Shown here piece after piece: positions 6,079-51,758 of a stretch of 60,000 nucleotides of DNA (the first letter of the stretch is position 1; the number at the start of each line of letters is the position of its first letter). The translations under genes and the position numbers were made by a program. The DNA lies in assembly GCA_038087875.1 (NCBI GenBank), contig CM075993.1, forward strand, positions 1,056,001 to 1,116,000, in the 5' to 3' direction. The DNA is from Malacoraja senta (Eukaryota). The notes beneath the pieces were generated by a model. The model ran no database searches, had not been told where the DNA came from, and was given only the letters and a program-made list of their open reading frames with translations.

Positions 6079-6309
6079 GTTTGTAGGGTGAAAATGAGAA
6101 GCTGTTGCTACTTGGGTGGGGGAGGGATAGAGAGAGAGGGAATGTCAGGGCTACCTGAACTGAGAGATTCATCTATACCGCTCATAATTTTATATATTTC
6201 TCTTAGGTCTTCCCTTAACCTGTAACATTTCAACAAAATCAATCCAAGCATGTCCAACCTCTCCCTTTAGCTCCAACCCTCTACTCCAGGCAGTTTTCTG
6301 GTAAATCTG

Positions 6310-7321: not shown

Positions 7322-10300
7322 TGAATGTGCGGCGATCGCTGGTCAGTACGGACTCGGTGGGCCGAAGGGCCTGTTTTCACGCTGTATCTCTAAACTAAAC
7401 TAAAAATTACTGCCCGACAGCTGAGTCTTTCTAGTGTCCTGTTTTTTGTTCCTCTTTCCATAGAGGCTTTCATCTAACTATCAGTGCAAGTTGTCTTAAA
7501 AGTAACGTTAGTACGGTGATTAAATTACTGGGCTAGTATTGAGAGGCTTGAATTATTGATTCAAGGACATGAATTCACATCCCACCACAGAATCTGGGAT
7601 AGTTAAGTTAAAATAATTTAATAAATGCAGAACTTTAAAAAGAACTAATTTATGTAATTAAACGGCCAGAGTGCTGCAATAATCCATCTTATTCTGTGTA
7701 TCTCAGGAGAGGGTAAGCTGCAATCCCATTGGGGTCTGGCAAATCTATGGCTCTGAATCTCAGAGTGCCAGAGATCAGGGTTCAATCCTGCCTTGGGTAC
7801 TGACCATATGGAGTTTACACTTCCTCTGTGTGACTGCATGGGCTCCCTCCGGGTGCTCCGGTTTCCTCCCAAATCCTAAACGATGACAGGTTTGCAGATT
7901 TAATTGGCCTCTGTAAATGCTACTTAGACTCTGTAGGGAACGGATGGGAAATTGGGATAACATAGAACTAGTGGTCGATGGTCAGTGTGGACTCGGTGGG
8001 CCGAATGGCCCGTTTCCATGCTGTATGTTTAAAATCAATCAATTCAGTCACAAATGGTCAGAACCCCCTCAACACTGCAAACGAGTTCGCCTGGACTTTG
8101 CACTCAAGAGCGGAAAATAAACCAGACTCCTCCTCGATTAGAAAGGTCCATCCGCTGGAGTTCAGCTATACTGTACTTCTGTTATTGTCAGAAGACACAG
8201 ATCAAGGCTGACTTTCTCTCTTCCTGTCCCAGAGCATCAAGTTAATTTTACAACAATTTCTATTCCAGTTGAGATCAAATAGCTCAGCTTAGACCAAAGT
8301 CTATCCCTCCCACAGAACATGACAATTCAACAGTCAGAGTTGATTCATTATATTACATTTAATGCTGTGCATTTGGGTCGCTTTTTTAATTCATAATGAT
8401 TGAATAACAGAATTTAAAGTTGAACGTAACGGATGTGTGAATCGCTGCTAGATATTTATGCCAATTGTATGGACGTCACCCATTCATTCTCTCCAGAGAT
8501 GCCGCCTGTCCCGCTGAGTTACTCCAGCATTTTTTATCCTTCTTCGGTGTCGGCTCGAAGGGCCGAATGGCCTACTCCTGCACCTATTTTCTATCTTAAC
8601 AAATTGCAACATCTCATATGTATCCGAATTAAACTCCATCTGCCATTCCTCAACCCATTTGCCCAGTTGATCGAGGTCCTTCTTCACCGTCTCATACCAT
8701 CTTTTACTGTCCTCAGCCCTGTGTCTCTGCCCAAAGTGGGTCAAGGTTGAGGGAGTTTTATTCTGTTAGTAGCCCTTGCTGTCCCCATCCTAGCAGTGTT
8801 GGACAGGAAAGCATTGAAGGATATAGGGAACGTTTCTCTGTATCCACTTGGATAGTCAATGCACATGGAATATCACAGTCTAGCTCACCTTTATCATACC
8901 TACTGTGGGAAGGACCAAGAATTTCTCAATTAAATTGGGATTATTTAATAATATAATTTAACATAAGTAAAACCATCCTTGAAATGCTACAAGTAGGAGA
9001 TTGCAAATAGGAGAATGCTGAATTCTCACGGCAAGATTACTGGGAGGAGAAAATGTATTGGATATAGGTATTACTCGAGATTGTGAAAGTGTTTCATTCT
9101 GCAGGTACTGTGAGCAATGAAAAGAGATATCTGTTTTAACTGGACATCTGATATTGTCAGTGACCCAGGTTTGATATCAGGAAATAAGTGAGGAAATGGA
9201 ACAGCTAGGAACACTCCAACAGCCAGCAGTAGCTCAATGGGCTGAAGGGTCTTTGTATACGCTGTAAGAATTAAGTGGCACAAAGGGGGGTTTTAAATGG
9301 TAGACATGATCCTTTGGGTCAGCGAGGAGCTGTGTGCCGTCACCTCACAAAAACACGTTATCCTTAACTGTCCGATGAGGATTAAAGATTCCCATTCCCC
9401 AGCCTGAAATATCTAAAAGGCCATCACTCCGGCAGGGTGCTTCATATATTCAAATCATGAATATCTATTCATTATTTGTTGAACAGCGGCTGTATTTAGT
9501 CAAATATGTTATTGATAAAGCAACGTGCCAAAGACTGGAGAAACATTAGAGAGGAATATGCAGAATACGGGCTATGTAATGACATAAACCTACACTGACC
9601 ATAAACCTACACTGAGTTACAGGATGCTGTAAAATGTCCACAGCCCTGACCTTACTGTACACGTGACACTGCATCATCTTTAATGGCTTTCTAATGCTGT
9701 CTAGTTAATGTCCGCGCTTTTAATATCCTGTTGTATCACAGCTCTTTGTTTCAAAGCCATTGAAGTAATAAGGTTCAGAAAGTATACGTGCCTCTGGAGG
9801 CCAGTTACAGTTCATATGGTTTTACATGTACACGTCCACCAGCAGTGGGGGTATATTTTCATGCAAGTCTACCAATCTATTCTCCTCACAGCCAGATTCC
9901 ATAGTCTGCACTGGAATGAATGGATGAGTTTATTGGCCAAGTATTCACATACAAGGAATTTGCCTTGGTGCTCCGCCCGCAAGTGACAACGGCATAGTGA
10001 CAAATGGGATGGAAATGTAGATCCCGCAATGCTGCACAGTCCACGTGTATCAAAGCAATTGCCCATCTCTACTGTTCCGTGATTACTCAAAATGAAGATC
10101 ACCACTAATTCTCCAGTACTGTGACAGAACGAGGATTCTCTGCATTCAAATACAGAATGTTTGGGGGCATCGCCAGGTAAAAATGTCTGACTTGCTTAAA
10201 AACAATAAGTACAGAGGTCTGAGATGGAGATGATGGCCAAACCAGCTTACTCTCTGGTCCCAGACCCTCAATCATTCATTACAATCGCTCCACTCCTTTA

Positions 10301-12056: not shown

Positions 12057-13698
12057 TTAACAAAACAAAATGTATAATATGGTGTAGACAGCCCTATTGA
12101 TGGAAGAACAACGTAACGGCAATTATATTGAAAAGTGGAGATAATTATTTTCATAATGAAAAGTTTAGAAGGATTTTGGTAAGGTCAGGGGTCAACTCTT
12201 CCAGGGAATTGGCATGGTTTGGATTGGCTGAACTGTCTATGACTGGATGCTGTGTGTGGGAAGGAACTGCAGATGCTGATTTAAACCGAAGATAGACACA
12301 AAAAGCTGGAGTAACTCAGCGGGACAGGCAGCATCTCTGGAGAGAAGGAATGGGCGTTGCTCCGGGTCGAGACCCTTCTTCAGATGGATGTTGTATTTCA
12401 CAGGCTGCAACTCACGTGAAAAGAGCTGACGTCTGCATCCCTCTGCGACAGGCTGCACGTCATCCCTTCACACCAGCATCACTCCCTCGCACATACATGG
12501 CTCTGAAGCATATACGGCACACATCCCTGGACACAAACATCAAGCCCCCCATACACATACATCCCTTCACTGTACACAACCCTTCTCACATACATCACTC
12601 ACTTCCCACCCTTCACTCATTAGACTTGGCGCCTTTATGTCACAACCTATCTTCTATTTATATCTCCCACACTTCTTCCCATTCCAACACAAAGAATAGT
12701 GCAAGGGATGATTCATTCCCTGTAAGGAAGTTGGCAAAAAGAAAAGCTGACGCAGATTTGAAGCAGCAAATCTCTCATGTTTTGTCCTTACAGGCGAGCA
12801 GTCCTGAGCTGCTGGGCAGAGCAAGCTGTTAAATATTCATGACGAGACGTGATTTACAGTCAGCACCAGAAAACTATCTTGCACCGAATATTCTCAGCCT
12901 CGTGTGGGGCAGCAGACATTCAAATAACTTCACGTATAACCCCTGCATTCCCTCTCTCTCCCCATCCCTCCCCCACCCAAGTCATACCAGCTTCAAAATC
13001 GTCATAGACACATCTCTGGAGAGAAGGAATGGGTGACGTGAAGAGTCTCGACCCGAAATGTCACCCGTTCCTTCTCTCCAGAGATGCTGCCTGTCCCGCT
13101 GAGTTACTCCAGCTTTGTCCACCTTTGATTTAATCCAGTATTTACATTTCTTTCCTTCACATTCAAAGATGTCACATTAAGTCTCATTGTCTGTATTTGT
13201 TTTGACCTAAGAAACATCTAACAATGGCCTGTTTCCTTTATCATCATTACTTTTTTGCTTATCTTTCATTCATTTGTTCTATATCTCTCAACATCACTGT
13301 CTATATCTCTCATTTCCCTTTCCTCAGACTCTCAGTCTGAAGAAGGGTCTCGACGCAAAACGTCACCCATTCCTTCTCACCAGAGATGCTGCCTGTCCCG
13401 CTGAGTTACTCCAGCTTTTTGCGTCTATCTTCGGTTCAAACCAGCATCTGCAGTTCCTTCCTGCACAGACATTCCAGCCAGCTACATTTCTGATTTTAGG
13501 TTAGGAGTTTTGTAACATTTGTAGCATCCAAAGTCTCAGGCTAAAATATTCATCCAAGAAATCTGCTTCCTCTCATATCTCGATTTATCACTTTGTAAAA
13601 ACGCAGGAAGTAACCGCAGTGTGGAGTGAAGTTTGTGGTTGGATTGAGACCACAAGTATAAGTGTTAATGCAAAACGATAACATTTAGCATTGCAAGT

Positions 13699-13885
13699 AG
13701 ACAAAAAATGCTGGAGAAACTTAGCGGGTGAGGCAGCATCTATGGAGAAAAGGAGTAGGTGACGTTACGGGTCGATACCCTTCTTAGGGACTCGACCCGA
13801 AACGTCACCTTTTCTCCATAGATGCTGCCTCACCCGCTGAGTTTCTCCAGCATTTTATGTCTACTATCGATTTTTCCAGCATCTT
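13699..13885. mobile_element. Head-to-head palindromic PLE terminal insertion
   Basis: Inverted arms around a hammerhead remnant; degraded TSD beginning AACATTTAG. Confidence 0.75.
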
Positions 13886-18869: not shown

Positions 18870-20030
18870 AGAAGACTGGAGGGTGACCAATGTTGTGCCG
18901 TTATTCCCAAAGGGCAGTGAGGAAAACCATGAAAATCAGGTCCCACAAACCTGTTGGAGTTTGTTGAAGAGGTAACCAAGAGGAAGACAGGGCGGTGGAC
19001 ATCGTCAGTATGGATTTTAGCAAGACCTTTGTGTAGGAAGGAACGGCAGATGCTGGTTTAAACTGAAGATAGACACTAAAAGCTGGAGTAACTCAGACAG
19101 CATCTCTGGAGAAAAAGAATAGATGACAACAGACAATAGGTGCAGGAGTAGGCCATTCGGCCTTTTGAGCCAGCACCGCCATTCACTGTGATCATGGCTG
19201 ATCATCCACAATCAGTACCCCGTTCCTGCCTTCTCCCCATATCCCTTGAATCCACTATCTTTAAGAGTTGGGACCCTTCTTCAGTGTGAAGAAGGGCTCC
19301 AACCCGAAACATCACCTATTCTTTTTCACTAGAGATGCTGCCTGTCCCACTGAGTTACTCCAGCTTTTTGTGTCTATCTTCGGTATAAACCAAGTCTGAA
19401 GAAGGGTCCCGACCCGAAACATCACCTATTCTTTTACACTAGGGATGCTGCCTGACCCTCTGAGTTACTCCAGCATTTTGGGTCTATCTTTGACAAGGTC
19501 CTGCATGGTAGACATCTATTAGGCTAGATGGCATGGGATTCAAAGAAGGCTAGTTAATTGGCTTGATGGTAGGAAGCAGAGGATGATGGTGGATGACAGA
19601 AAGAACTGCAGATGCTGGTTTGTGACAAAGATAGACACAAAGTGCTGGAGCAACTCAGCGGGTCGGGCAGTATATCTGGAGAAAAAGGATAGGTGCCGTT
19701 TTGGGTCGGGACCCTTCCTTAGACTCAAGATCACACTAAAGATGGCGAAGCTTATCGACATTTACAGTAGGATCTTCATCAGCTATGCCAGTGCAATTTG
19801 TGACCTCGAACCAGGGTAGGGTCTTCACAGTGAACAGATAGCGCCGTGGGGATTGTTGTTGAGCTAAGGGATCCAGGAGTACAAGCACATCATTCTCTGA
19901 AAATGGCAGCATTGATGGATGGAGTGGCGATGAAGGCTTTAGGCACCCTGGCCTTCATCAGTCAGGGAAATTAATATACAAGTTGGGACAATATGATACA
20001 GTTGTACGTGGAGTTGGTATGAGTCATAAA
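18870..20030 (+). mobile_element. Old degraded CR1 RT fragment split by nested insertions
   Basis: DWRVTNVVPLF, LLEFVEEVT and MDFSKTF|DKVLHGR continue across the 19030-19491 insert. Confidence 0.7.
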
Positions 20031-21330: not shown

Positions 21331-21867
21331 TGTTACCTAACACTAGCCAGTGACCTTTCTTCTTTATTGCCGTGCCATGATCTACACCCTCACCTCACCC
21401 ACCTTGCCCCACCTCTGCCCAGATCAATACACAAAGATTATTACGCCATTCACAATTTATAATCCTTCATCACTATCCAACACTATCCAGCACAGTGCCA
21501 GAGACCCGGGCTTCAGAGACCTGACTACAGGTGCTGTCTGTATGGAGTTTGTACGTTCTCACTGTTACCGCGTGGTTTCTCCAGTTCCTCCCACATTCCA
21601 GACATATAGGTTTGTAGGTTAATTGGTTTCGGCAAAATTGTTCCTAGTGTGTAGAATCGTGCTAGTCTACGGGATAATAGCTGAGCATATCACACGAGAC
21701 CTCGCCAAAGGTCTTGCTAAAATCCATATAGACATCACCCACCAACCTTCCCTGCTCAACCCTCTTAGTTACCTCATAAAAATTCTAATAGATTAGGATT
21801 TGGTTCAATGGTCACAATTCACCACGGTCAGATGGATTCTCAACACATGCCATCTCAGTGAGGAGGT

Positions 21868-22009
21868 AGACAACAGGAGATCGTCTGAGGAAGGGTCTCG
21901 ACCCGAAATATCGCCTATTCCTTCTCTCCACAGATGCTGCCTCACCCGCTGAGTTCCTCCAGCATTTTTGTCTACCTTCGATTTTTCCAGCATCTGCAGT
22001 TTTCTTAAA
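21868..22009 (+). mobile_element. PLE-derived hammerhead unit with TSD
   Basis: 17-bp TSD CATCTCAGT(G/T)AGGAGGT. Confidence 0.75.
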
Positions 22010-24289
22010 CATCTCAGTTAGGAGGTTCACTTGGACCAGGAACCAGAAGCTAGCCAAAGGAAAATGCCCCTGATAGGCAACAACCACAGAAGCAAAGCGA
22101 TGAACATTATCACTATTATTCATTCCCTCCACTGAACTAACGTCCGCTTTTTTGCAGAAAAACTTCTGGTAATCTTGCCTGTGTGCCATCTACTATATCT
22201 TGTTCTGGCAAATAGGATATGGATGACACAATGGCACAGCTGGTAGAACTACTGCCTCACAGCACTGAGTGCTGTCTGTGTGGAGTTTGCTTGTTTCCCT
22301 GTGACCCGGTTTCCTCCCACATCCCATGGGTCTGTTGGTTAATTGACCTCTGTGAATTGCCCCCTAGTGTGTAGGGAGTGGATGCAAACATGAGTACTAG
22401 TGAGAACGGGTGATCGACGGTGGGCAGGGACTCGGTGGGCCGAAGGGCCTGTTTCCCTCCAGTATCTTTCCATCAATCAAATGTGAGCATTTACTAGTTC
22501 AGTTTAGGAGAGGAAAGAAACTCCGATAAAGGAGTGTTCAAGCTAAACAGCTCTTCCAAGATGAAAGGAAGAGCCCATGATAAATGTAAAAGATCAGGCA
22601 TCTTTCTGCATGATGGGTGAGGAACTTAATCACTTGATGTTAAAGCAAATCACTTCCTCTGTGTTCAAGAGACACCTCCGTATCTGTGATGTATTAGTGC
22701 AAGTCTGCGGCAGAGGATTTACAATGAGATTTCTGAATTATATCTATTGCATCTATGTCCCCCAGCTGATGATAAGATGTTCCTGCTACTTGGCCAAAAT
22801 TATAGTCACCCATCACTATTTAGAGAAAGAGCAATTAGACCCAAGGCAAACTAATACAGATAAAACCAATTACTCAGTTATATTACAATTGTCTGATCTG
22901 TCCTCTAAGCTTAATAATTAGATAGTTAAATCCTCAAAATGCCTAACTGAGATGGCACTGCCCAAAGATGCAATTAACCCCACATCAGCCAAGAAAGTGG
23001 TGGATTTGATCACAAGAGTTATAGATACAGCCCTCACTCTGCAATACAATTGGTTTTGGTTCCCTAGGAGATGATAAGGGAATCAATCAGAATTGATATT
23101 TCACCTGATCACTATCTTTGTTTGGGCCTGGAATCAGAATGAACTGAATTTGCCAGTACCACACTCCTTCAAAATCATTTGGGGAATAAAAAGTTTGATG
23201 GAAATGTTAGAGATACAACATGGAAACATGTATAGGAAGAAACTGCAGATACTTGTTTGAGCTGTAGACACAAAATGCTGGAGTAACTCAGCGGGACAGG
23301 CAGCATCTCTGGAGAGAAGGAATGGGTGAAGTTTCGGGTCGAGACCCCTCTGCAGACTTATGTCAGGGGAGAGGGAGATACATAGATAAGGAAGAGTAAG
23401 GTGCGAAAATAGGACAAAGGGAATGGAGACCAAGCAAATGTAGAATAGATCATTGTTGGCTGGGAGTTAGCTGCTTTAAAAAAAAAATCTCTGTTCAAAG
23501 TAAACAGAGAAAAAATGTGGTCAGCGACAGTAAGACTGGTCAGAGAACTGGGAAAGGGGAGGGGAGAGAGGGAAAGCAAGGGTAACATGGAAACCCACCA
23601 AATCCATGCCAACCACCAATCTCCCTTTCACGCTAGTTCCAGGTTATCCCTCTTTCTCATCCACCCTCTGCACATTTGGGGTATTTTACAGAGGTCAATT
23701 AACCCACAAAAGAACATTTTTTGTTCCATTTTTATTGGTTTTGTGGGATTTTCTGGAATTGCGTTCAAGATCGTGTGTAGCTTGTGGTATTGGGCTTTTG
23801 AATGGCCTCTCCCATCCTTCAATTAGTCTCAGAAATACACATTGATTTTCCCCTGCAATCTTTCACTAACTCGTGGAAAATATTGAGCAGTTTATCCAAT
23901 TTGCAATAGACCAACTACTTTCTCACAGCTGTTTTTTCTTGATCTTCAATGTTCTTACCTCCTATGTCTCACATATGAGAGTAAACATTTAGTGAGGCCA
24001 GGCTGTAGAAATCACAACCATTGATTGAGCCCAGTCTCTGCTGTTTGTAGACAACTAGTTCTGTGGAGCATTTCAGACCAAAAACTCTGCAGATGGGAGG
24101 AAGCCTCTTAAAAACTGGTAAGAGCTGCTTCAGGGCATATGCAGAGGATGAAGCGTGGAAACAGGCCATTCGGCCCAACATGCCCATGCTGACCAAGATG
24201 CTGACCACCTGCCTGTGTTTGGCCAATTTCCCTCCTATCCTATCCAAGTAGGAAACAAAACCTACTTGTGGACAAGTATAAATTTTAAC

Positions 24290-28238: not shown

Positions 28239-28641
28239 CAAAGATCCTGAAGCAAGCAAGATAGTCCACTCGACGGAAAAGACGTAGTACGGTCACGGGC
28301 AGATTCATGGGTAATTTTCGGCCCCATTTCCGTAACCGGCTTCCGTCTCCGCACCAAAGATCCCGTAGCGGAGCAAAGATACTAGTGCGGAGACGGAAGC
28401 TGGTTACGGAAACATCCTCGTAAAAATCAAAGTTCTTTGGTAAAAATCATCTCCTCATTTTCAGAATTATAATTTATTAACACAAACTGTTCCCCCGCAA
28501 CGTTGATTGCACTGCGAGTTGGGTCGGGTCGGGTTACTGAAATGAATGAAAAAAAGGCCCACGTCCGTTCCGTTGCGTACTACACGTCAGCCCATTGCAT
28601 TTAGAAGGAGTGGTCTATCTTGCTCTACTATAGGATCTTTG
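28239..28641. mobile_element. hAT-type MITE, copy 2
   Basis: Same TIRs and interior as 5684-6078; perfect 8-bp TSD ATTTTGAC. Confidence 0.88.
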
Positions 28642-29794
28642 ATTTTGACTGCCTCTCATTCCACTCTTCCCCACAGAACATGGAACATAGGATCAAGCCC
28701 CTTGGCTCATGATATCGTTACCGAACACAGTGACAATTTGAACTGCACTAGTAAATTTGAAATGTCTCTTTGGAAGTTTAACAAGTGTTTTCTCTCCCTC
28801 ACTTTTGCCTGTTCATATCTCTTGTAAATGCCTTGTACACATTGGTATTGTGTGTGCATCCCCCATTTCACCGAGCAGTGTATTCAAGGCACCTACCACT
28901 TTGAGCAAAAAGACTTCTCAGAAAGATTCCTCTTTGAACAGTTCCCGCTCACACCTTGAAGCCATGCCCTCTAGTATTTACCACGCACCCTGGGAGAAAA
29001 ACTCTTGAGTATCTATGTCTCTCATGATTTTATAGACTTCTATCAGGTTGCCCATCAGCCTCCGGCGTTCCTGAGAAAACAATCTTAAGATTGTCTATTT
29101 TCACCTTATAGCTAATACTCTCAATACCCGCCAGCATTCTGCTGAAGAAGTTTCTGTAACCTGCTCGAGAGAGCCCAGCTATTGGCGGTTGTGCAGTGGA
29201 TGATCAGCCATGATCATATTGAATGGCGGTGCAGGCTCGAAGGGCCGAATGGCCTACTCCTGCACCTATTTTCTATGTATCTATGTATCTATGTAGATAA
29301 GCAGAAGCAGAAGAAGGGTCTTGACCCGAACCATCACCCAATTCCTCTCTCCAGAGATGCTGCCCATCCCACTGAGATACTCCAGCATTTTGTGTCTATC
29401 TTCAACATTCCGCACCCTCTCCACAGTCTCAACCATCTTCTTCTAATGTAGTGACCAGAACTGCACGCAATACCTCAAATAAGGTCTAATCATACGTAAC
29501 TGCAAGGTGAATTTCCCAACTTTTATACTCAACATGCCAACTGATGAAGGCAACATGCTGTACGCCTTCTTCACCACCCCATTTTTAGGGAGCTAAGGGC
29601 CAACACCCCAAAGTCCCTCTGTACATCAATGCTCTTAAAAGTCCTGCCATTTACTGTACCCTTCTCACATCTACCCCCAAATGTGCATCACCCCATATTT
29701 GTGCAGATTCTACTCCAGCTGCCGATTCCCACCATCTCTCTGTAGTCACTCTATCAAACCCCTTCCTTCATCATTATGATCTAAGTTGCTTATA

Positions 29795-30329
29795 GTTCAG
29801 TTTAGTTTATTGTCACGTGTACCGAGCTTTTGTTGCGTGCTATCCAGACAGTGGGAAGACAATACATGATTACAATCGAGCCGTTTATGGTGTATAGGTA
29901 CATGATGAGGGGATAATGTTTAGTGCAAGGTAAAGCCAGTAAAGTCCGATCAAGGGTAGTCCGAGGGTCACCAAAGAGGTAGATAGTAGTTCAGCACTGC
30001 TCTCTGGTTGTGGTAGGATGGTTCAGTTGCCTGATAACCGCTGGGAAAAAAACTGTCCCTGAATCTGGAGGTGTGCGTTTTCACACTTCTGTACCTTTTG
30101 CCAGATGGGATTATGCTGCTGGCCTTGCTGAGGCAGCATGAGGTATACATGGAGTCAATAGAAGGGAGAAGGGTCTGAAGAAGGGTTTCGGCCCGAAACG
30201 TTGCCTATTTCCTTCGCTCCATAGATGCTGCCTCACCCGCTGAGTTTCTCCACCATTTTTGTCTACCTTCAATAGAAGGGAGGTTGGCTTGTGTGATAGT
30301 CAGGGCTGCGTCCACAATTCGTTGCAATC
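29795..30329 (-). mobile_element. Rex1/Babar LINE 3' end (other copies at ~2420-2710, 10490-11290, 42510-42680, 51645-52263)
   Basis: PSGKRYRSVKTHTSRFRDSFFP plus the shared UTR. Confidence 0.82.
30169..30268 (+). mobile_element. ~100-bp PLE-derived hammerhead unit with TSD
   Basis: 14-bp TSD TCAATAGAAGGGAG at 30155-30168 and 30269-30282; inserted in a Rex1 tail. Confidence 0.85.
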
Positions 30330-33119: not shown

Positions 33120-33430
33120 GAAACATAGATGCAGGAGTAGGCCATTCAGCCCTTCGAGCCAGCACCACCATTCAATATCATCATGGCTGACCATCCAAAA
33201 TCAGTACCCTGTTCCTGCTTTTTCCCCATATCCCTTGATTCTGTTAGCCCTAAGAGCTAAATCTAACTCTCTCTTGAAAACATTCAGTGAATTGGCCTCC
33301 ACTGCCTTCTGTGGCAGAGAATTCCACAGATTCACAACTCTCTGGGCGAAAATGTTTTTCCTCATCTCAGTCCTAAATGGCCGACCCCTTATTCTTAAAC
33401 CGTGAACCCTGGTTCTTGACTCCCCCAACA
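33120..33430 (-). mobile_element. HER1/CR1 LINE 3' end
   Basis: [14 protein letters not shown]...QRVVNLWNSLP plus the conserved 3' UTR on the minus strand. Confidence 0.88.
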
Positions 33431-34508
33431 AGCAAAGAGTAGGAGTAAACGGGTCCTTTTCACAATGGCAGGCAGTGACTAGTGGGGTACCGCAAGGCTC
33501 AGTGCTGGGACCCCAGCTATTTACAATATATATTAATGATCTGGATGAGGGAATTGAAGGCAATATCTCCAAGTTTGCGGATGACACTAAGCTGGGGGGC
33601 AGTGTTAGCTGTGAGGAGGATGCTAGGAGACTGCAAGGTGACTTGGATAGGCTGGGTGAGTGGGCAAATGTTTGGCAGATGCAGTATAATGTGGATAAAT
33701 GTGAGGTTATCCATTTTGGTGGCAAAAACAGGAAAGCAGACTATTATCTAAATGGTGGCCGACTAGGAAAAGGGGAGATGCAGCGAGACCTGAGTCATGG
33801 TACACCAGTCATTGAAAGTAGGCATGCAGGTGCAGCAGGCAGTGAAGAAAGCGAATGGTATGTTAGCTTTCATAGCAAAGGGATTTGAGTATAGGAGCAG
33901 GGAGGTTCTACTGCAGTTGTACAGGGTCTTAGTGAGACCACACCTGGAGTATTGCGTACAGTTTTGGTCTCCAAATCTGAGGAAGGACATTATTGCCATA
34001 GAGGGAGTGCAGAGAAGGTTCACCAGACTGATTCCTGGGATGTCAGGACTGTCTTATGAAGAAAGACTGGATAGACTTGATTTATACTCTCTAGAATTTA
34101 GGAGATTGAGAGGGGATCTTATAGAAACTTACAAACTTCTTAAGGGGTTGGACAGGCTAGATGCAGGAAGATTGCTCCCGATGTTGGGGAAGTCCAGGAC
34201 AAGGGGTCAACAGCTTAAGGATAAGGGGGAAATCCTTTAAAACCGAGATGAGAATAACTTTTTCACACAGAGAGTGGTGAATCTCTGGAACTCTCTGCCA
34301 CAGAGGGTAGTCGAGGCCAGTTCATTGGCTATATTTAAGAGGGAGTTAGATGTGGCCCTTGTGGCTAAAGGGATCAGAGGGTATGGAGAGAAGGCAGGTA
34401 CGGGATACTGAGTTGGATGATCAGCCATGATCATATTGAATGGCGGTGCAGGCTCGAAGGCCGAATGGCCTACTCCTGCACCTAATTTCTATGTTTCTAT
34501 GTTTCTAT
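33430..34508 (+). mobile_element. HER1/CR1 LINE 3' part (RT C-terminus + 3' UTR)
   Basis: [43 protein letters not shown]; (TTTCTATG)n tail. Confidence 0.93.
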
Positions 34509-35448: not shown

Positions 35449-35574
35449 GATCATTGGGACCTCTTTTGGGGAAGGTGTGACCTGTACAGAAAGGACGGGT
35501 TGCACTTGAACCCGAGGGGAACCAATATCCTGGCGGGGAGATTTGCAAAGGCTACTGGGGAGACTTTAAACTAG
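35449..35574 (+). pseudogene. CR1 ORF1 C-terminus (SGNH/GDSL esterase-like)
   Basis: Translates as DHWDLFWGRCDLYRKDGLHLNPRGTNILAGRFAKATGETLN*. DGLHL is the esterase catalytic block typical of CR1 ORF1. Confidence 0.85.
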
Positions 35575-35579
35575 AACGG

Positions 35580-38500
35580 TTGGGGGGAGGGACTCAAATA
35601 GAGAAAGATAGTAGAAACTGTGGGAGGCAGGAGGCAGAGAAGGGAAGCACTCAGACCCAAAATGTAGGGGAGAAAGAAGAAAAAGTTAATAAACAGAGAA
35701 TAAGAGGTGGTGGGTTTCTTAAATGTGTATATTTTAATGCTAGGAGCATTGTAAGAAAGGTGGATGAGCTTAGAGTCTGGATTGACACCTGGAAGTATGA
35801 TGTTGTGGCGATCAGTGAAACATGGTTGCAGGAGGGCTGTGATTGGAAACTAAATATTCCAGGATTTTGTTGCTTCAGGGGTGATAGAATTGGAGGGGCA
35901 AGAGGTGGGGGTGTTGCATTGCTTGTCAAGGAAGATATTACAGCAGTGCTTTGGCAGGATAGATTAGAGGGCTCGTCTAGGGAGGCTATTTGGGTGGAGC
36001 TGAGAAATGGGAAAGGTGTAGCAACACTTATAGGGGTGTATTATAGACCGCCAAATGGGGAGCGAGAATTGGAAGAGCAAATATGTAAGGAGATAGCAGA
36101 TATTAGTAGTAAGCACAAGGTAGTGATTGTGGGAGATTTCAATTTTCCACACATAGACTGGGAAACACATTCTGTAAAAGGGCTGGATGGTTTGGAGTTT
36201 GTAAAATGTGTGCAGGATAGTTTTTTGCAGCAATACATAGAGGTACCTACTAGAGAAGGGGCAGTGCTGGACCTCCTGTTAGGAAATGAGACAGGGCAGG
36301 TGGCGGAGGTAAGCGTCGGGGAGCACTTCGGGTCCAGTGATCACAATACCATTAGTTTCAATATAATTATGGAGAGGGTCAGAACTGGACCTAGGGTTGA
36401 GATTTTTGATTGGAGAAAGGCTAACTTTGAGGAGATGCGAAAGGATTTAAAAGGAGTGAATTGGGACATGTTGTTTTATGGGAAAGATGTAGAAGAGAAA
36501 TGGAGGACATTTAAAGTTGAAATTTTAAGAGTACAGAATCTTTATGTCCCTGTTCGGTTGAAAGGAAATAGTAAAAATTGGAAAGAGCCATGGTTTTCAA
36601 GGGAAATTGGACACGGTTCGGAAAAAGAGAGAGATCTATAATAATTATAGGCAGCATGGAGTAAATGAGGTGCTTGAGGAGTATAAAGAATGTAAAAAGA
36701 ATATTAAGAAAGAAATTAGAAAAATCTAAAAGAAGATATGAGGTTGCTTTGGCAAGTAAGGTGAAAGTAAATCCAAAGGGTTTCTACAGCTATATTAATA
36801 GCAAAAGGATAACAAGGAATAAAATTGGTCCATTAGAGAGTCAGAGTGGACAGCTATCTGCAGAGCCAAAAGAGATGGGGGAGATATTGAACAATTTCTT
36901 TTCTTCGGTATTCACCAAGGAGAAGGATATGGAATTATGTGAGGTAAGGGAAACAAGCAGAGTAGCAATGGAAACTATGAGATTCAAAGAAGAGGAGGTG
37001 CGGACACGTTTGAAAAATATGAAAACGGATAAGTCTCCAGGTCCTGACAGGATATTCCCGAGGACATTGAGGGAAGTTAGTGTAGAAATAGCAGGGGCTA
37101 TGACAGAAATATTTCAAATGTCATTAGAAACGGGAATAGTGCCAGAGGATTGGCGTACTGCGCATGTTGTTCCGTTGTTTAAAAAGGGTTCTAAGAGTAA
37201 ACCTAGCAATTATAGACCTGTTAGTTTGACGTCAGTTGTAGGCAAATTAATGGAAAGGATACTTAGAGATAATATATATAAGCATCTGGATAAACAGGGT
37301 CTGATTAGGAACAGTCAACATGGATTTGTGCCTGGAAGGTCATGTTTGACTAATCTTCTAGAATTTTTCGAAGAGGTTACTAGGGAAATTGATGAGGGTA
37401 AAGCAGTGGATGTTGTCTATATGGACTTCAGTAAGGCCTTTGACAAGGTTCCTCATGGAAGGTTGGTTAAGAAGATTAAATTGTTGGGTATTAATGGTGG
37501 AGTAGCAAGATGGATTCAACAGTGGCTGAATGGGAGATGCCAGAGAGTAATGGTGGATGGCTGTTTGTCAGGTTGGAGGCCAGTGACTTGTGGGGTGCCT
37601 CAGGGGTCTGTGTCGGGTCCACTGTTGTTTGTCATGTACATCAATGATCTGGATGATGGTGTGGAAAATTGGATTAGTAAGTATGCAGATGACACTAAGA
37701 TAGGTGGTGTGGTGGATAATTAAGTAGATTTTCAAAGTCTACAGAGAGATTTAGGCCATTTGGAAGAGTGGGCTGAAAGATGGCAGATGGAGTTTGATGC
37801 TGATAAATGTGAGGTACTACATCTCGGCAGGACAAATCAAAATAGGACGTACATGGTAAACGGTAGAGAATTGAGGAATGCAGTTGAACAGAGGGATCTA
37901 GGAATAACGAAGGTACACAAAAAATGCTGGAGAAACTCAGCGGGTGCAGCAGCATCTATGGAGCGAAGGAAATAGGTAACGTTTCGGGCCGAAACCCTTC
38001 TTCAGATCTTGGAATAACTGTGCATAGTTCCCTGAAGGTGGAATCTCATGTAGATAGGGTGGTAAAGAAAGCTTTTGGGGTGCTGGCCTTTATAAATCAG
38101 AGCATTGAATATAGAAGTTGGGATGTAATGTTAAAATTGTACAAGGCATTGGTGAGGCCAATTCTGGAGTATGGAGTACAATTTTGGTCGCCTAATTATA
38201 GGAAGGATGTCAACAAAACAGAGAGAGTACAGAGGAGATTTACTAGAATGTTGCCTGGGTTTCAGCAACTAAGTTACAGAGAAAGGTTGAACAAATTAGG
38301 TCTATTCTTTGGAGCGCAGAAGGTTAAGAGGGGACTTGATAGAGGTCTTTAAAATTATGAGCGGGTTAGACAGAGTTGACGTGGATAAGCTTTTCCCATT
38401 GAGAGTAGGGAAGATTCAAACAAGGGGACATGACTTGAGAATTAAGGGACAGAAGTTTAGGGGGAACATTAGGGGGAACTTCTTTACTCAGAGAGTGGTA

Positions 38501-39800: not shown

Positions 39801-39946
39801 AAAATGCTGGAGTAAATCAGCGGGACAGGCAGCATCTCCGGAGAGAAGGAATGGGTGACGTTTCGGGTCAAAAGTCCGAAGAAGGGTCTCGACCCGAAAC
39901 GTCACCTATTCCTTTTCTCCAGAGATGCTGCCTGTCCCACTGAGTT

Positions 39947-40309
39947 ACTTTGTGTATATCTCTGGTGTAAACCAGCATCTAGGCCAGGTCTATCAGGTGT
40001 GAAATTCCGAAACTGCTCCTGACAGATATTCTCAGATACATTTGAAACCTTCTTAATGCTTATTTTGTGTCTAAAATTGAATTATCTTTGATAACTAAAG
40101 AGAAATGGAGAAATATGCAGCAAAGGAAGGAACTTGTCAGAGGCAGCCATGATCTCTGACAAGTTCCAGCCTTTGCTGCAAAGTACAAAATAAGCATTAA
40201 GAAGGTTTCTAACGTATCTGAAAATATCTGTTAGGAGCAGTGTTTCTGAATTTCACACCTGGTAAGATCTGGCCTAGATGCTGGTTTACAGCAAAGATAG
40301 ACACAAAGT
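39947..40309. repeat. ~360-bp imperfect foldback (inverted duplication)
   Basis: 39947-40068 is the reverse complement of 40185-40309; inner hairpin at 40116-40180. Confidence 0.9.
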
Positions 40310-40993: not shown

Positions 40994-43499
40994 TAAGGAT
41001 AATGCCCTTAGTTAGATCTTCGCTCTGGATTATAATCTAGCTGTGAGTGGTAAAGCTGATTTCAGATAAATGATGGTTATGAACACCACTGAAGATATGC
41101 TGTTGATAGATCAGGGAAACGGCAGCAGAAACGCTAAACTTTGAAAGCAAAAAACTCTAAACTTTCCCTGGAAGGATCTAATCTTCGGTCAAATCAGGTG
41201 GAATTGATTGACCTCATTTTGGTTGTTGCCTGCTATTGGCCATATCTAATGTTTACTGGCGATGTAAGCCTTCTCCCGTTCCTGTTTATCATGCGCTTGC
41301 GTTCAATAACCATCCTTAATTACAGACTTAACGCGGGAAAACAGGCGCAGATGCGTTGCGCGGTGTGTAAAGCTAAATCCAGGTTCCAGAGGAGATGGGT
41401 AAGCCGAATGTTTACAGCCATGTTTGTGCCACCCAGAACAGTAATCCCTTTCATCGGGCCAATTTCAAGATGGCGATCCGCGGGTAAACAAGTCAACACT
41501 TTGTGTAGGAAGGAACTGCAGATGCTGGTTTAAACTGAAGATAGATAGAAAACGCTGGAGTAACTCACGGGAAGGGCAGCATCTCTGGAGAGACGGAATG
41601 TGTGACGTTTCGGGTCAGTATGGGAGTGGGAAGGAGAGTTAAAATAGTTAGTATTTTAACATTCAGGTTTGTGAGAGGAAAGGAGTTTTGCTGCTGAACA
41701 TCCATCTGTAAATGTGGGCATGAAATCCAGATTTAAACGGTGAACTAAAGCACCAGGAAAGATGAATGTCTCACTCTGGGCTTGACGGATGGACCATAGA
41801 TTGTAGATAAAAATAAGACTCAGTAAACATCTTTAAAAACATTTCTGAGGCAGTTTATATCGCATTAACCTCTAGCAGTCTGATTTAACTCCAGTGCTAC
41901 AGTGGGTGCCACTGGAGATTAGGAATGGTCCTACTGATCTCCTTAGTACATTAATTTGATCAACAGTTCAACATCTTCTCTGACCAAGTGTCCAGCTAGA
42001 TACTGGAGATTCAACTGTCACAATGTTAATTCCCTCAGCGGACGGGTCCCGGTATTAATTACCAATTCAATGATCTATTATTTCTGGTGCTCGATCAAAC
42101 ATCAGCAGGAAGAGGAGATATACATTCCCACTGCTAAAGCTCCTCTTTAATTTGTTTCACTAAATGGTCTCAAGTGCCTCTAGTATTTGTTTAAATCAAT
42201 TTTAATTAATTGATTGAAACATTTTGATAATTATCGATGGTGATGGCAGATGGTTGCTACAGCTAATCCTCCCCAATCCAAACTCGCTTGTGTTTTGCTG
42301 ATTGAAGGACTTTATGGGAGATCAATGTTTAGCCTTCTGCTTAGAGGGACTCAGCGGCAGCTCCTGTGTCACCCCCCCCCCACCCCCCCACCCGCCCTCA
42401 AGCTGTAATCCTTAAACCACAGACTGATCACAACATTGTTCACTAAACATTCATCCTCGTGCATTCTCTGCGCGATACAACTCCTTTCTTTTATCTTTGT
42501 CCATTTAGCATCGGGCAAGAGGTACAAAAGTGTGAAAACACACACCTCCGGATTCAGGGACAGTTTCTTCCCAGCTGTTATCAGGCAACTGAACCATCTA
42601 CATTAAACATTATTCCCTCATCATGTATCGATACACTGTAAATGGCTCGATTGTAATCATGTATTGTCTTTCTGCTGCTGCCTCTAAACATAACAAAAGA
42701 CACAGAGTACTGGAGTAACTCAGCGGGTCTGGCAGCATACCTGGAGAACATGGACAGGTGACGTTTTGGGATGGGACCATTCTTCAACGTCTCCTATCCA
42801 AGTCCTCCAGAGATGCTGCCTCACCTGCTGAGCTACTCCAGCACTTTGTGTGTTTTTTTTTTTAAATACACCAGCATCTGCAGTTCCTTGATTCTATATC
42901 TGTCCATTAAACCTCGTTCGTTATAATCAAGACATTGTAAACGCACTCTCCTCATACAAGTCACTATCCCAGGAATGAATCAGGTGAAGCTCTTCCTGAC
43001 GTGGGGATACAAGACGTGGGCACAATATTCATGAATGCTCAATGTAATTGAAGCAAGACATCTCCACTGCTACAGTCAAAGCGTCTTGCAGTAGAGGCCA
43101 ACACCCAGCATGCCTTCCTAATTGGTTGTTGTGACAGCATGTCAACATTCAGTGATTACTGCACAAAAGACACCAATTTCTCTTTCAAACTCAACACTGT
43201 TCAATTTCTCTTCATTTAAAAAAAAGACAACTTTTCCTTCCAAAGTGGGTAGGCTGGCATATTAATCACAGTATAATCCTGGAGCAAGCACCACCTGTAA
43301 TCATGTGTCATTGTTACCACTTAGAGGGGGAAAGAAAAGGAACGGTTTGGAATTATATTCCTAATCTCACAAACCACAATTACAACTCCTCCACCTGATG
43401 GCCGTCCCAGATGCTGATGGACTGTCGCTGTCTGCACTGTTGGGCAATCTCAACAGGTAAGTGGCGCTGAAGAGAGAATGTTATTCTGTCTCCGCTGCA

Positions 43500-44095
43500 T
43501 CTCCTGTATCCAGGTGTGGACTTCTATATATCCACAAGATCAAGCGCAGGCTCGGCGATCGTTTCGTTCAACACCTCCGCTCAGTCCACCTAAACCTACC
43601 TGATCTCCCGTTTGCCAAACACTATAACTCCCCCTCCCATTCCCACACTGACCTTCCTGTCCTGGGCCTCCTCCATTGTCAGAGTGAGGCCCAGCGCAAA
43701 TTGGAGGAACAGCACCTCATATTTCGCTTGGGCAGCTTACACCCCAGCGGTATGAACATTGACTTCTCTAACTTCAAGTAACCCTTGCTTTCCCTCTCTC
43801 TCCGTCCCACCCCCACCCTTGTTCTCCCACTAGCTTCACTGTCTTCCTGATTAAAGGTTACTTTGCATGCCTCGTTGTCACCATCCCCACAACCAATAAT
43901 GAAGCATTCTACATTCTCCTTGATCATCATCTATGATCTGTCGTTTTCACACCTTACCCTTCCATATCTTTAGACTCCCTCTCCCCTGATGCTCAGTCTG
44001 AAGAAGGGTCTCGACCCGAAACGTCACCCATTCCTTCTCTCCAGATATGCTGCCTGTCACGCTGAGTTACTCCAGTATTTTGTGTCTATCTTCGG
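43500..44095 (+). mobile_element. Penelope-like element 3' part: decayed GIY-YIG + terminal repeat
   Basis: CGLLYI...KRRLGDRFVQHLRSV...RKLEEQHLIFRLGSLHPSGMN; intact motif at ~43995-44030. Confidence 0.9.
43994..44030 (+). ncRNA. Minimal type I hammerhead-ribozyme-like motif (PLE-associated)
   Basis: CAGT-CTGAAGA-A-GGGTCTCGACCC-GAAA-CGTC-ACC: CUGANGA core, an extra A, stem II, GAAA, palindromic ACGT stem III and a GUC cleavage triplet. Stem I is very short. Confidence 0.7.
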
Positions 44096-44599: not shown

Positions 44600-45023
44600 C
44601 ATCATTGATCCAGTGCTGCGAGGACATTGTGAAAATAAGACATTACATATCTTCGTAGACCCATATCACAGACGGAATCATACAACACAAAAACAGGCCC
44701 TTCTGCCCAACTTGCCCCTACCATGCTAGTCCCACCTGCCCAGGTTTGGCGCATATCCCTCTAAACCTTCCCTATCCATGTACTCGTTCAAATGTCTTTT
44801 AAATGCTGTCACACGGCTTGAGACTTGAAACTGTGCCCTGGAACATGGTGCCTGCCTGCTGCTGATCCAGAAGGGGATCTATTACAATTGCTTCTTGGTT
44901 CTTGGTTTCTTGGTTTCTTGGTCCTCCAAAATATTCCAAATGGAATTTAAACTGGAAGTGGTGGAGGGAGGACTTAAGCCAGAAAGGGTTTTTGGGAGGA
45001 AAGAGCTACCTTAAATTTAGTTG

Positions 45024-45711
45024 TCTATGATCGCTCCCTCCGTAACTCCCTTGTCAATTCTTCCCTTCCCTCCCGTACCACCCCCTCCCCGGGTACTTTC
45101 CCTTGCAACCACAAGAGATGCAACACTTGTCCCTTCACCTCCCCCTCGATTCCATTCGACCTAAGTAGTCGTTCCAGGTGCGACAGAGATTCACCTGCAT
45201 CTCCTCCAACCTCATCTATTGCATCCGCTGCTCTAGATGTCAGCTGATCTACATCGGTGAGACCAAGCGGAGGCTAGGCGATCGTTTCGCCGAACACCTC
45301 CGGTCGGTCCGCAATAACCAACCTGACCTCCCGGTGGCTCAGCACTTCAACTCCCCCTCCCATTCCGTATCTGACCTCTCTGTCCTGGGTCTCCTCCATG
45401 GCCACAGCGAGCAACACCGTAAATTGGAGGAAATGCACCTCATATTCCACTTGGGCAGTCTACATCCTGGGGGCTTGAACATTGAATTCTCCCAACTCTG
45501 CTAGCCCTTGCTGTCCCCTCCCCTTCATCATCCCTCTGGTTGTCTCCTCCCATCCCCCAGCCCTCAGGCTCCTCCTCCGCCTTTTTTCCTTTTTTCCTTT
45601 CTTCTCCCCACCCCCTATCAGTCTGAAGAAGGGTTTCGGCCCGAAACGTTGCCTATTTCCTTCGCTCCATAGATGCTGCTGCACCCGCTGAGTTTCTCCA
45701 GCATTTTTGTG
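45024..45711 (+). mobile_element. Penelope-like element 3' part: GIY-YIG endonuclease + terminal repeat with hammerhead-like motif
   Basis: ORF 45178-45504 (FTCISSNLIYCIRC..C..IYIGETKRRLGDRFAEH...PGGLN). 17-bp TSD TACCTTAAATTTAGTTG at 45007-45023 and 45712-45728. Confidence 0.92.
45619..45655 (+). ncRNA. Hammerhead-like motif, variant B
   Basis: CAGT-CTGAAGA-A-GGGTTTCGGCCC-GAAA-CGTT-GCC (UUCG loop, GUU triplet). Confidence 0.65.
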
Positions 45712-46351
45712 TACCTTAAATTTAGTTGCATCTGGTTGGGTAACTATAGTAGGGTGGAGATTATTCCATGCTTTAATTGTGCGGGGGAAGAATGAATTGC
45801 TGTCCACATCTGTCTTGGTAGCTGGAATCACAAATTGGATCGAATGCCCTCGTCTGCTCCTAATTGGTTTGGGTTTGGTGTAGGTCTTGTAATCTATGTC
45901 GAGCTGACCATTTAACATTTTGTAAAAACAGGTAAAACGGTGAGCTTCACATCTGTCTTGGTGAGGGTTCCATCCCAGAGAATTCAGAAGTTTGGTAACA
46001 CTCGCTTCTCTCTCATAGGTGTCAGTAACAAATCGAGCTGCCTGTCTTTGGACACGTTCGATGGAAGAAATGTTTTTATTTGTGTATGGGTCCCATGCTG
46101 CAACTGCGTAGTCCAAATTAGGTCTAACGTGGGTGAAGTATAGCTTCTCCTTGACAGAAGTTGAACATTCTTTAACTTGCGAATGAGAGTTAGATTCAGC
46201 TCTTGGGGCTAACGGACTCAACGGGATATGGGGAGAAAGCAGGAACGGGGTACTGATGATCAGCCATGATCATATTGAATGGGGGTGCTGGCTCGAAGGG
46301 CGGAATGGCCTACTCCTGCACCTATTTTCTATGTTTCAAGTGTATGTATGT

Positions 46352-49111: not shown

Positions 49112-51758
49112 CTTTGGGAGAAGGACAGTTGGTGTTCTCAGAGGCTGAGGGGACATCTAAATGATATCAAAGCAGATGAGCCCTGTCAAGGGGATCAAGG
49201 GAAGAGCAATCTGACAGTAATCTGCTTTCAGCCGTGGCATAACGTCACCATTCTGCTGATGACAGGAGGAATGGCCAGGTCACTGCCACATGACAGCAGC
49301 TCAGAGGCCAGTGATCCAGGCTAATATCCGGCTATTGACACCACAACAGAAAAATAGGAGCACATAGAGTGAACAAAGCTGTCCTTGACCTCTGAACTTA
49401 TACACATCGCAATATTAATACTCAGGACAGACGAGTGCCGAATAAGAGTGCACGCAGATAGTGTCTTCAGACTGAGGTCAGATTACTTAAGTATGAAGAA
49501 TGCCGATACACCTTCTCCTGAAATGCTGCCTGGCCCGCTGAGCTACTCCAGCCTTATGTGTCTTCTTTTGTATACCAGCACCTGCAGTTCTGTGTTTCTA
49601 CTCTTTACTTAAGTACGTATTTGATAGATTGAACAACACAGCAGGGATACACGTTAACACTATCCTACACACAGGGCAATATTTACACTTACACCAATCC
49701 AATTAACCTACAGACCTGTACATCTTTGGAGTGTGGGAGAGAACTGAAGATCTGGAGAAAACCCACGCAGGTCACGGGGAGAACGTACAAACTCCGTACA
49801 GACAGCACCGGTAGTCGGGATGGCACCCGGTGTCTGCAAGGCAGTAAGTAGCTGTACCGCTCCAGCCCACCAAGTCCACACCACTTTTGCATCCACTCCC
49901 TACACACTAGCGGCAACTTAAAGAGGCCAATCAACCTACAAATCTGCACATATTTGGAATGCGGGAGGAAACTGGAGCACCCGGAGGAAACCCACTCAGC
50001 CTGAGGGTCACGATCGCTGGTTGGTGCGGACTCGGTGGGCCGAAGGGCCTGTTTCCGCGCTGTATCTCTAAACTAAACTAAAGCGTGCATACTCCACATA
50101 GACAGCACCCATGGTTAGGATCAACTCGGGTCTATGGCACTGTGAGGCAGTAGCTCTACCAGCAGCACCACTGTGCAGCCCATTTACAAATGTTCACTGG
50201 CAACAAACTAAAACCAGCACTTCCACAAAATACTCCAGAGATGCTGCCTGTCCCGCTGAGTTACTCCAGCCTTTTGTGTCTATCTTTGGTTTAAACCAGC
50301 ATCTGTAGTTCCTTCCTACATAGAACAGGTCAACACAGGAACAGGCCCTTTGGCCCACAATATCTGTGGTGAACATGATGCCAAGATAAACTAATCTGCC
50401 CCCATGCGTTTGTTACCCCTTCATTCCCTGCATATCCATATATCTTTCCAAAAGCCTCTTACACACACACACCACTATGGCATCTGCCTCCACCAGTGTG
50501 TTCCAGGTACCAACCACTCTCTGTGTCAACAAATGTTACAATGGATTTTTACCTTCTCAACTTGGCAGTCTTTCAAAGTTCAGATCCTGTGTGTTTCTAG
50601 ATTGCTAAGTTGTTTAATTTACCAATTCAACTGCTCCCTGTTACCTTGGCTCATGAGCAGGGAAAGGTCAAGAAATGCCCATGGAACTCTTTACATCTCT
50701 TCTGAAAGTGAACGGATTAGTTTTTAATGTGCCTGGCTGTTCTTATATCTTTTTTCAATGACTCGAGACGAGAGCAGATCTATGCATGTAGGTGCATGCA
50801 GCGAGAGATTTTAAGATAAGGTGATAAGCTGACATATTAAATCCAAAATAGTACCGAGGTGTCACAGTGCAGGCTTAAGAAGCTGTGAGATGACAAGACA
50901 CACCTGCTGGATCATTAACACAGTCCATGATTCACAAAATCAGCTGCCACACATGAACCATGCCAAGCAGCTTGCTTTTCTAAATTCCTATTATAGTAAT
51001 CAGAACTTCACAGGCATAAGGGGTGTTCACAGGCCCAATGGCACAGCTGTTAGAGCTGCTGCCTCACAGTGCCAGAGACCCGGGTTCAATCCTGACCCCA
51101 GGTGCTGTCTGTGTGGAGTCTGCACATTCCCCCCGTGACTGCGTGGGTTTTCTCCGGTTTCCTCCTACATACCCAAGTTAGAAGGTTAATTGGCTTCTGT
51201 AGATTGTCTGTAGTGTGTAGGGAGTGAGTGCCAATGTGAGATAACATGGAGCTGGAGTGAGCAGTGGTCGGCATGGACTGGATGGGTTGAAAGGCCTGTA
51301 ACCATGCTGTTTCTCTACATTGAAACAAAACACTGGGGCCGCATCACACAGTCACGTTACACTATAATGCGATCAAGGATTTGTTATCTGTAAAACCAGT
51401 CACAGTATTAGGTCAATGCCCTGTTTCAGTTAAGCAATTTGGATGACATGCTCGTCCATTTAAAAGATGAGAGAAAGGATGATATCTTTGCTTTAAACCA
51501 CACAGAAGGTCAATTTGTGACATCAAACTGACCAAGGATATTTTCCGCCAAGCTCATGCGTTGCAGAATGAACGGAATCAGTTGCCGTATCCCGACTTTA
51601 TCTCGCAGATGGTGTTAATCAGCACATGACCGGAAATCTCCTGCAGTTTAGTTCAGTTTATTGTCCCGTGTACCGAGGTACAGTGAAAAGCTTTTGTTGT
51701 GTGCTAACCAGTCAGGAGAAAGACAATACATGATTACAATCAAGCCATTTACAGTATA

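Follow-up and report, generated by a model that had tools for sequence, protein, structure and literature searches.

The 5′ ends of short copies of a Penelope-like element (PLE) with a GIY-YIG endonuclease pile up at the 5′ side of a hammerhead motif in the window (the whole 60,000-nucleotide stretch of DNA analysed here), and this pile-up is a genuine, non-random feature of a known element class. The short copies are the hammerhead-plus-tail terminal module of this PLE, longer copies of which lie in the same window. No description of a fixed 5′ edge of short PLE copies was found in a literature that consisted largely of papers open without subscription, and the mechanism proposed below for the edge seen here is plausible.

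Short and long copies of the element

A BLAST search with the module returned 46 matches. After removal of a 21-bp chance match (8816–8836) and manual addition of an inverted stub of 18 nt (19267), the set comprises 46 arms, which belong to 37 insertions over the 60-kb window. Eight copies extend upstream into a pyrimidine-rich UTR, and two of these reach the end of the ORF with the GIY-YIG endonuclease. Offsets follow the hammerhead strand, position 0 being the G of GTCTGA, and this G0 lies at window positions 30173, 21883, 45621 and 43996. The long parent copies, the hammerhead motif and the three insertions named in a preliminary description of this DNA, with their target-site duplications (TSDs), are as follows.

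45007–45728, + strand: long 5′-truncated parent copy B, PF01541, 17-bp TSD
43506–44095, + strand: long 5′-truncated parent copy A with the C-terminus of the endonuclease, a 3′ UTR and a hammerhead at 43996
30173–30204, + strand: minimal type I hammerhead motif, predicted from sequence and pair counts
30155–30168, + strand: left TSD, 14 bp, same letters as 30269–30282
30169–30268, + strand: PLE end-module insertion, 100 bp, subfamily B-like
30269–30282, + strand: right TSD, its first bases also equal to the continuing tail (microhomology)
37895–38018, − strand: 96-bp copy 37909–38004 with 14-bp TSD (one mismatch), start at +1 to +3
21851–22026, + strand: 142-bp insertion 21868–22009 with 17-bp TSD (one mismatch), G0 at 21883, long tail

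Copy B consists, in this order, of a remnant of the Cys-rich linker, the GIY-YIG C-terminus (45169–45501; PF01541, E = 6.7e-05, over the cut-off, with Atlas matches of 0.95–0.96), the pyrimidine-rich 3′ UTR, TCAGT with its A(−1) at 45620, the hammerhead and the tail. The fragment 43515–43778 of copy A has no Pfam match and shows 69% tblastn identity to the fragment of copy B. No copy within the window reaches the PLE reverse transcriptase (RT) region; a Cx4CxxC motif is present upstream of the GIY-YIG domain in the parent copy, across a frameshift, and a zinc-finger-like Cys motif within the linker that joins RT and endonuclease is a criterion for the Neptune and Nematis clades in the available text of PMC8557442. 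Exact patterns of the module had no match in the metagenome, viral or genome contigs scanned beyond the window. Further C-terminal fragments of PLE endonucleases occur at 54152–54255 and 53743–53791 without an adjoining hammerhead module. A repeat of about 400 bp with internal inverted repeats and a MITE-like look is present at 5684–6082 and 28239–28645, the copies being 91% identical, and one of them is inserted in the 3′ UTR of the long PLE copy 5566. An inverted TCAGTCTGAAGA motif with a different continuation is found at 49450–49480, upstream of the diverged copy 49511, and may represent a different PLE family or an inverted arm that has decayed.

The motif at 30173 is composed of a 2-bp helix I, CTGAAGA (30175–30181), stem II with a UUCG loop (30183–30194), GAAA (30195–30198) and an ACGT palindrome, with a predicted cut after 30202 (+29). 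In its sequence, this core matches the minimal type I hammerhead described in the accessible part of PMC4209133, and self-cleavage is predicted. Over 23 copies, helix II is paired in 92% and helix I in 72%, against 9–53% for slid controls; there are no two-sided changes in these copies and shuffles give equal values, so that covariation lends the pairing no support, and Rfam at the gathering threshold gave no matches over the 60 kb. The short copies begin about 30 nt upstream of the predicted cleavage site, as the preliminary description had stated, and its remark that they are not simple cleavage products holds as well: ribozyme-cleavage products were ruled out as their source because no copy begins at +30. 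Elsewhere in the window, a 17-bp tandem array (6800–7060; 15.4 copies, 95% matches) carries CTGAGGAAGGG, the start of the hammerhead core, on its reverse strand, and may be a minisatellite seeded from the edge of the PLE core or a chance likeness.

The coordinates and TSDs (14, 14 and 17 bp) first assigned to the three named insertions were borne out by comparison of their flanks. The insertion at 30169–30268, with a perfect 14-bp TSD and 95% identity to the long copy 45621 over +9 to +95, runs from four extra nucleotides through G0 at 30173 and the minimal hammerhead motif to the first tail end site; the four extra nucleotides can be read as an inverted tail stub or as a duplication from the core. 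The copy at 37909–38004, 99% identical to the long copy 45621, sits inside ORF2 of a LINE; LINE ORF2 remnants with APE and RT motifs, which we take to be CR1-like, extend over 35481–38352 and 33406–34240, and the copy splits the first of them. The insertion at 21868–22009 opens with 15 extra nucleotides. Taken together with the last four nucleotides of the TSD, the first ten or so of these spell the first end site of the tail in reverse complement, and to judge from these letters the opening looks like a vestigial inverted arm. The original account of monomers of about 100 bp is accurate for 30169 (100 bp) and 37909 (96 bp), and not for 21868, which is 142 bp long and no plain monomer. TSD scores of at least 11 were obtained for six of the 37 elements, the three named ones included, and for none of 150 mismatched-flank controls (maximum 10), the remaining 31 elements being at background in the same search; a later comparison added the 17-bp TSD of the long copy 45024–45711 (45007–45023 and 45712–45728).

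Distribution of the 5′ ends

The 5′ ends were taken from local alignments to eight long references, adjusted by hand and counted by insertion. The 5′-most end lies at −3 to +12 in 20 of the 37 independent insertions, 14 of which end at −3 to +3, in agreement with the earlier observation that many other copies start there. Proceeding from the tail, the ends among the insertions that reach each interval are 3/37 at +61 to +90, 0/34 at +46 to +60, 3/34 at +29 to +45, 3/31 at +13 to +28, 6/28 at +4 to +12, 14/22 at −3 to +3 and 0/8 at −19 to −4; that is, 28 insertions reach +12, 20 of them end within −3 to +12, and none of the eight survivors ends in the next 16 nt. The end rate per nucleotide is about 0.06 in the peak, compared with 0.004 downstream and 0.001 upstream (binomial p of about 1e-10 and 3e-12, respectively), the upstream rate coming from few copies, four of them with an undefined end. 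An arm-by-arm count agrees with the count by insertion on the peak. A count over the copies in the window, made in place of the genome-wide histogram of breakpoints that had been suggested earlier, shows a sharp peak at the 5′ edge of the core and no smooth spread.

An edge of this kind could also be an alignment artefact, if subfamilies diverged upstream of the core and homology only seemed to stop there. The pyrimidine content of the upstream flank averages 0.47 in 13 short copies and 0.80 in the eight long copies; the flanks of the short copies, being far below 0.80, are therefore not diverged PLE UTR. Moreover, four of the seven TSD-bounded insertions start at 0 to +6. Such an effect does occur: in three of four public sequencing runs (X1, X6 and X22), loose ends at 45617 come from long copies that belong to other subfamilies, and this class is separable by its position and its C-rich flank. 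An artefact as the main cause was ruled out on these three grounds (TSD-bounded starts, a separable 45617 class and flank composition), and the probability left to it is negligible.

These four of the 22 runs listed, from three organisms, comprise contigs (X1 and X6), contigs that are RNA by guess (X15) and raw polyA RNA reads (X22), and were aligned to the long copy B at 87% likeness. From the last UTR bin into the core the depth rises about eightfold in X1 and far more in X6, X15 and X22, part of the rise being other subfamilies whose UTR fails to align; the depth of the core is several times that of the ORF in all four. Among the positions listed, which are the best 24 of 1,880 and represent peaks, not a full histogram, 5′ loose ends with a C-rich consensus are found at 45617 (at least 125 in X1, at least 239 in X6 and 502 in X22) and are long copies of other subfamilies. 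The 5′ loose ends at 45620/45621, corresponding to −1/0, number at least 125 in X1, at least 203 in X6, 21 in X15 and 368 in X22 in the same listing; their flank consensus is AT-rich with an agreement of only 0.33–0.38, and they are junctions to unrelated DNA.

Further features of these runs are recorded here. A backward joint of about 34 nt, from 45661–45664 to 45620–45634, recurs in every one of the four, with 17 contigs in X1 and 17 in X6, and duplicates +9 to +42, the ends of which are paired in an alternative, ribozyme-inactive hairpin; this suggests structure-guided template switching. In X1, joints back to the start of the core carry the inserted letters 'G' (45664 to 45620) and 'GAGTC' (45664 to 45626). 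In X22, reads over the end of the PLE ORF (45030–45520) are biased two- to threefold to one strand, probably antisense, and those over the core are balanced.

Origin of the 5′ edge

In the explanation that we consider best, and to which we give an even chance of being right, the RT starts internally, 95–135 nt downstream, and runs off the RNA 5′ end at an initiator-like TCAGT. The parent PLE RT would, as PLE RTs do, prime on nicked target DNA and begin inside an uncleaved RNA, the dominant 5′ end of which would be A(−1) or G0 of TCAGT, most likely the start of a capped Pol II transcript. An RT entering 95–135 nt from such an end would, as its start is near the RNA 5′ end, reach that end and leave an insertion of a fixed 100–135 bp. 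The free cDNA end might then be joined to the target, giving monomers, annealed through the self-complementary ACGT and stem II sites, giving head-to-head pairs, or transferred to another template, giving tandems, and the long copies would derive from a downstream pseudo-LTR (pLTR) or from read-through RNA.

Several observations favour run-off. Upstream, the 5′ ends break off abruptly at −1/0, the shorter products being skewed downstream, and the junction peaks listed are at −1/0 and neither at +1 (an AG splice acceptor) nor at +30 (the ribozyme cut). TCAG is kept in six of the eight long copies even though it has no partner in helix I, and the TCAGT at the edge matches the initiator consensus. 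The tail ends fall at +89 to +102 in 12 of 45 and at +113 to +150 in 24 of 45, the other nine lying elsewhere, and these two zones fit the two RT start sites of PMC11167929, where, in the available text, a PLE RT starts internally about 110 nt into a hammerhead-bearing leader with uncleaved RNA as the template. An untemplated 5′ G has been linked to copying of the cap in L1 (PMC9341517, accessible part), and a G precedes the junction at −1/0 in the flank consensuses of two of the four runs (X1 and X6, at places where the element itself carries A or C; there is no G in X15 and X22) and in the two X1 joints described above, which hints at a cap. Against a cap, G precedes only two of the seven copies in the window that start at −1/0, and that of 30169 may stem from a templated duplication. 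The TATA-like motif seen around −30 is a weak one that the B copy lacks. In Penelope of Drosophila virilis the start site lies in the pLTR with an intron inside the 5′ UTR (PMC8557442), the 3′ terminus of this intron mapping to helix I (PMC4209133), and this precedent, as far as the available text goes, therefore puts the start further upstream. The one raw RNA run (from another organism, a fragmented polyA library of which about 6% was read) showed no position at which many RNA molecules begin; the strands are nearly equal over the core there (1849 versus 1767), a picture that looks like passive transcription.

Head-to-head pairs, absent from the preliminary description, make up eight of the 37 insertions, one of them together with a tandem copy; seven are as follows.

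19267–19490, + strand: inverted stub and a tandem of two short copies, period 110
59645–59870, no strand assigned: head-to-head pair with 15-bp TSD, arm starts about +6 and +22, tail ends about +129 and +93
39801–39982, no strand assigned: head-to-head pair, arm starts −1 and about +17
13690–13884, no strand assigned: head-to-head pair, starts about +5 and +9, with a 12-bp TSD candidate at background level
13011–13162, no strand assigned: head-to-head pair lying within the 3′ UTR of the long copy 13335, starts +3 and, at the ACGT palindrome, +25
42698–42890, no strand assigned: older head-to-head pair, starts +3 and +24
56401–56528, no strand assigned: head-to-head pair, starts +1 and +17

Also in favour of run-off, in seven of the eight pairs one arm starts at −1 to +6 (the other at +2 to +25, three times near the ACGT palindrome), and in the tandem at 19283 the downstream copy begins at A(−1) and is joined to tail position +108. 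The arms of 39801–39982 differ at two positions that vary among the subfamilies, a hint that a single event copied two distinct RNAs (by twin priming, with a hammerhead dimer perhaps as the template).

The edge could instead mark where an RT on a long template stalls and is released, because it meets a structured stretch of RNA or a bound protein within the hammerhead or just past it. The end rate does climb across the core (8 of 39 arms at +13 to +28; 6 of 28 insertions at +4 to +12), an alternative hairpin pairs +7 to +12 with +37 to +42, and the 34-nt backward joint connects these places of the hairpin in all four runs, showing that the RT does slip there. A structure, however, should stop the RT at its 3′ entry side, whereas the mode is at −1/0, beyond the core, and the next 16 nt are without ends; moreover, the folds of short-copy segments do not surpass those of shuffles (z = +0.5 and +1.05). 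The RT stop at the structured core proposed in the preliminary description fits poorly, because the RT comes in from the 3′ side and will already have copied stem II and CTGAnGA by the time it reaches the sharp edge, which lies beyond them on the 5′ side. With the mode on the far side of the core and an empty zone beyond it, a template end therefore explains the geometry better than a block, and we regard stalling as unlikely.

A fixed but processed and uncapped template 5′ end, from which the RT would likewise run off, would have the same geometry as a start site. Such an end would result from cleavage in the loop of a hairpin in which the pyrimidine tract pairs with GUCUGAAGAAGGG, or from the action of a different nuclease. 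In the long A copy 13335 the tract does pair with 0 to +12, leaving a loop just before G0 (z = −3.3, reached by none of 200 shuffles), whereas the fold of B (45590–45717) is no better than shuffles (z = −0.4, 64 of 200) and has a loop 20 nt wide. Processing also leaves the G hint and the conservation of TCAG unexplained, and we consider it improbable.

If the boundary were a 3′ splice site, formed by the pyrimidine tract and CAG, the short copies would come from spliced RNA or a splicing intermediate. The tract is followed by AG in all eight long copies and by CAG in seven, and the D. virilis intron ends at helix I (PMC4209133, available part). The listed peaks, however, are at −1/0 and not at +1, the upstream flanks share no common exon sequence (agreement of about 0.34), and GT..AG ends at 45621 occur in none of the best 15 of 155 joints, so that splicing is very unlikely to be the cause. 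The chances are slimmer still for an antisense RNA template, on which −1/0 would be the start of the RT and not its end. Antisense templates have been proposed for PLEs (PMC3846280, accessible part), and the two- to threefold bias of the X22 reads over the ORF has the direction that antisense RNA should give in common stranded libraries; against this, the long copies differ at the upstream end and have the tail ends in common, the microhomology with the target is at the tail (6 nt in the TSD of 45621), and initiation in vitro takes place at tail sites on sense RNA (PMC11167929, as far as available).

The short copies might also be a self-propagating, SINE-like non-autonomous element with its own internal promoter that is mobilized in trans, which would be compatible with the start-site reading. 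Sequences of the pLTR suffice for mobilization in trans according to the available part of PMC3846280, a group of five arms (21883, 59659/59735 and 13697/13786) has no long member of its own within the window, and the depth of the core exceeds that of the ORF severalfold in every run. By contrast, the short copies 38007 and 30173 are 99% and 95% identical, respectively, to the long copy 45621, the A-type short copies are closest to the A-type long copies, and the tail ends vary as they do among the long copies. Short and long copies interleave on a tree of 28 rows and 80 columns, which is weak (two of 25 branches starred); the long/short label changes seven times on it, against a mean of 6.3–6.4 in shuffles, 500 of 500 of which were as low. 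An independent mini-element is not supported, and the self-propagating element is rather improbable. A short-only lineage may nevertheless exist, as the tree is weak and the five-arm group lacks a long member of its own. Of the interpretation first offered, the pile-up is confirmed, the discrete minimal retroelement is not supported by this subfamily comparison, and the RT stop fits the edge poorly, as set out above.

Run-off at a template 5′ end can be extended to a strong-stop form of replication, which is possible but on the unlikely side. The RNA would start at the 5′ edge of the hammerhead, the RT would copy from the internal tail site only the 100–135 nt leader, and the cDNA would then be passed on to a different place on a template. 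This acceptor may be the 3′ end that hammerhead cleavage leaves on a unit-length RNA, which would have a terminal repeat of 31 nt (−1 to +29) in common with the RNA 5′ end. If true, this would account for how the pLTR is rebuilt and for what the ribozyme does, and the majority of genomic copies would be transfers that failed; the available texts see 'no obvious mechanism' for pLTR regeneration in PLEs (PMC2377424) and regard the role of the minimal hammerhead as an open question (PMC7761336). The edge, taken with the known internal RT start, predicts a strong-stop intermediate, and a 5′ edge drawn from thousands of fossil copies would map where the template starts even if no active element is at hand. 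Should the edge be no more than a stall, it is a modest refinement of known PLE anatomy.

Relation to known systems

Minus-strand strong-stop DNA of LTR elements and retroviruses arises by internal priming near the RNA 5′ end, which gives a short run-off cDNA that must transfer; here, in contrast, nicked target DNA would serve as the primer and the short product becomes integrated, so that the likeness is one of mechanism only. Short, inverted and tailed PLE insertions and dispersed minimal hammerheads are already known (PMC8557442, PMC3846280, PMC2377424, PMC7761336 and PMC9977147, in their available parts). Animal non-LTR retrozymes share a type I hammerhead, an origin from the pLTR, units of 50–1000 bp and some monomers (PMC7761336; bioRxiv 10.64898/2026.07.22.740005, available text). 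Retrozymes, however, form tandem arrays in which each unit extends between two cut sites and arises through a circular RNA (same preprint), whereas here one of 37 insertions is a tandem, of two units, the ends are off the cut site and the three named copies are single. A classical retrozyme was ruled out because the copies are not tandem, and none begins at +30.

The minimal type I hammerheads of metazoan PLEs share the CUGAnGA core, the extra base before stem II, GAAA and the palindromic ACGU in place of helix III (PMC4209133); the motif in the window, known here from its letters, differs in a helix I of only 2 bp and a stem II of 4 bp. Metazoan minimal hammerheads are mostly dispersed single motifs, 'probably related to truncated PLEs' in the accessible part of the same paper, and the very short PLE insertions of Chlamydomonas (median 128 bp) were ascribed to 5′ truncation (PMC9977147, available text). 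If the edge is a template end, many dispersed minimal hammerheads would be a defined class of products and not random truncations.

There are also likenesses to endonuclease-bearing (EN+) PLEs and to the Poseidon element of Anolis carolinensis (PAc). The 5′-truncated insertions of EN+ PLEs share the pLTR, a tail of 30–40 bp, an adjacent inverted copy and TSDs (PMC8557442 and PMC3846280, in the parts available), and the copies in the window resemble them in that the parent has a GIY-YIG domain, the tails end in two zones spaced by about 30 nt, and head-to-head arms and partial tandems occur. They differ in that their 5′ ends are not spread and stop sharply at the hammerhead's 5′ side, an edge that none of the available passages describes. 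For PAc, target-primed reverse transcription in vitro showed two internal RT starts downstream of the hammerhead, with uncleaved RNA as the template and both target strands extended; the accessible text of this study contains no map of RNA 5′ ends or of genomic 5′ breakpoints (PMC11167929). The parent element in the window differs from PAc in its Cys-rich linker, which may be of the Neptune/Nematis type.
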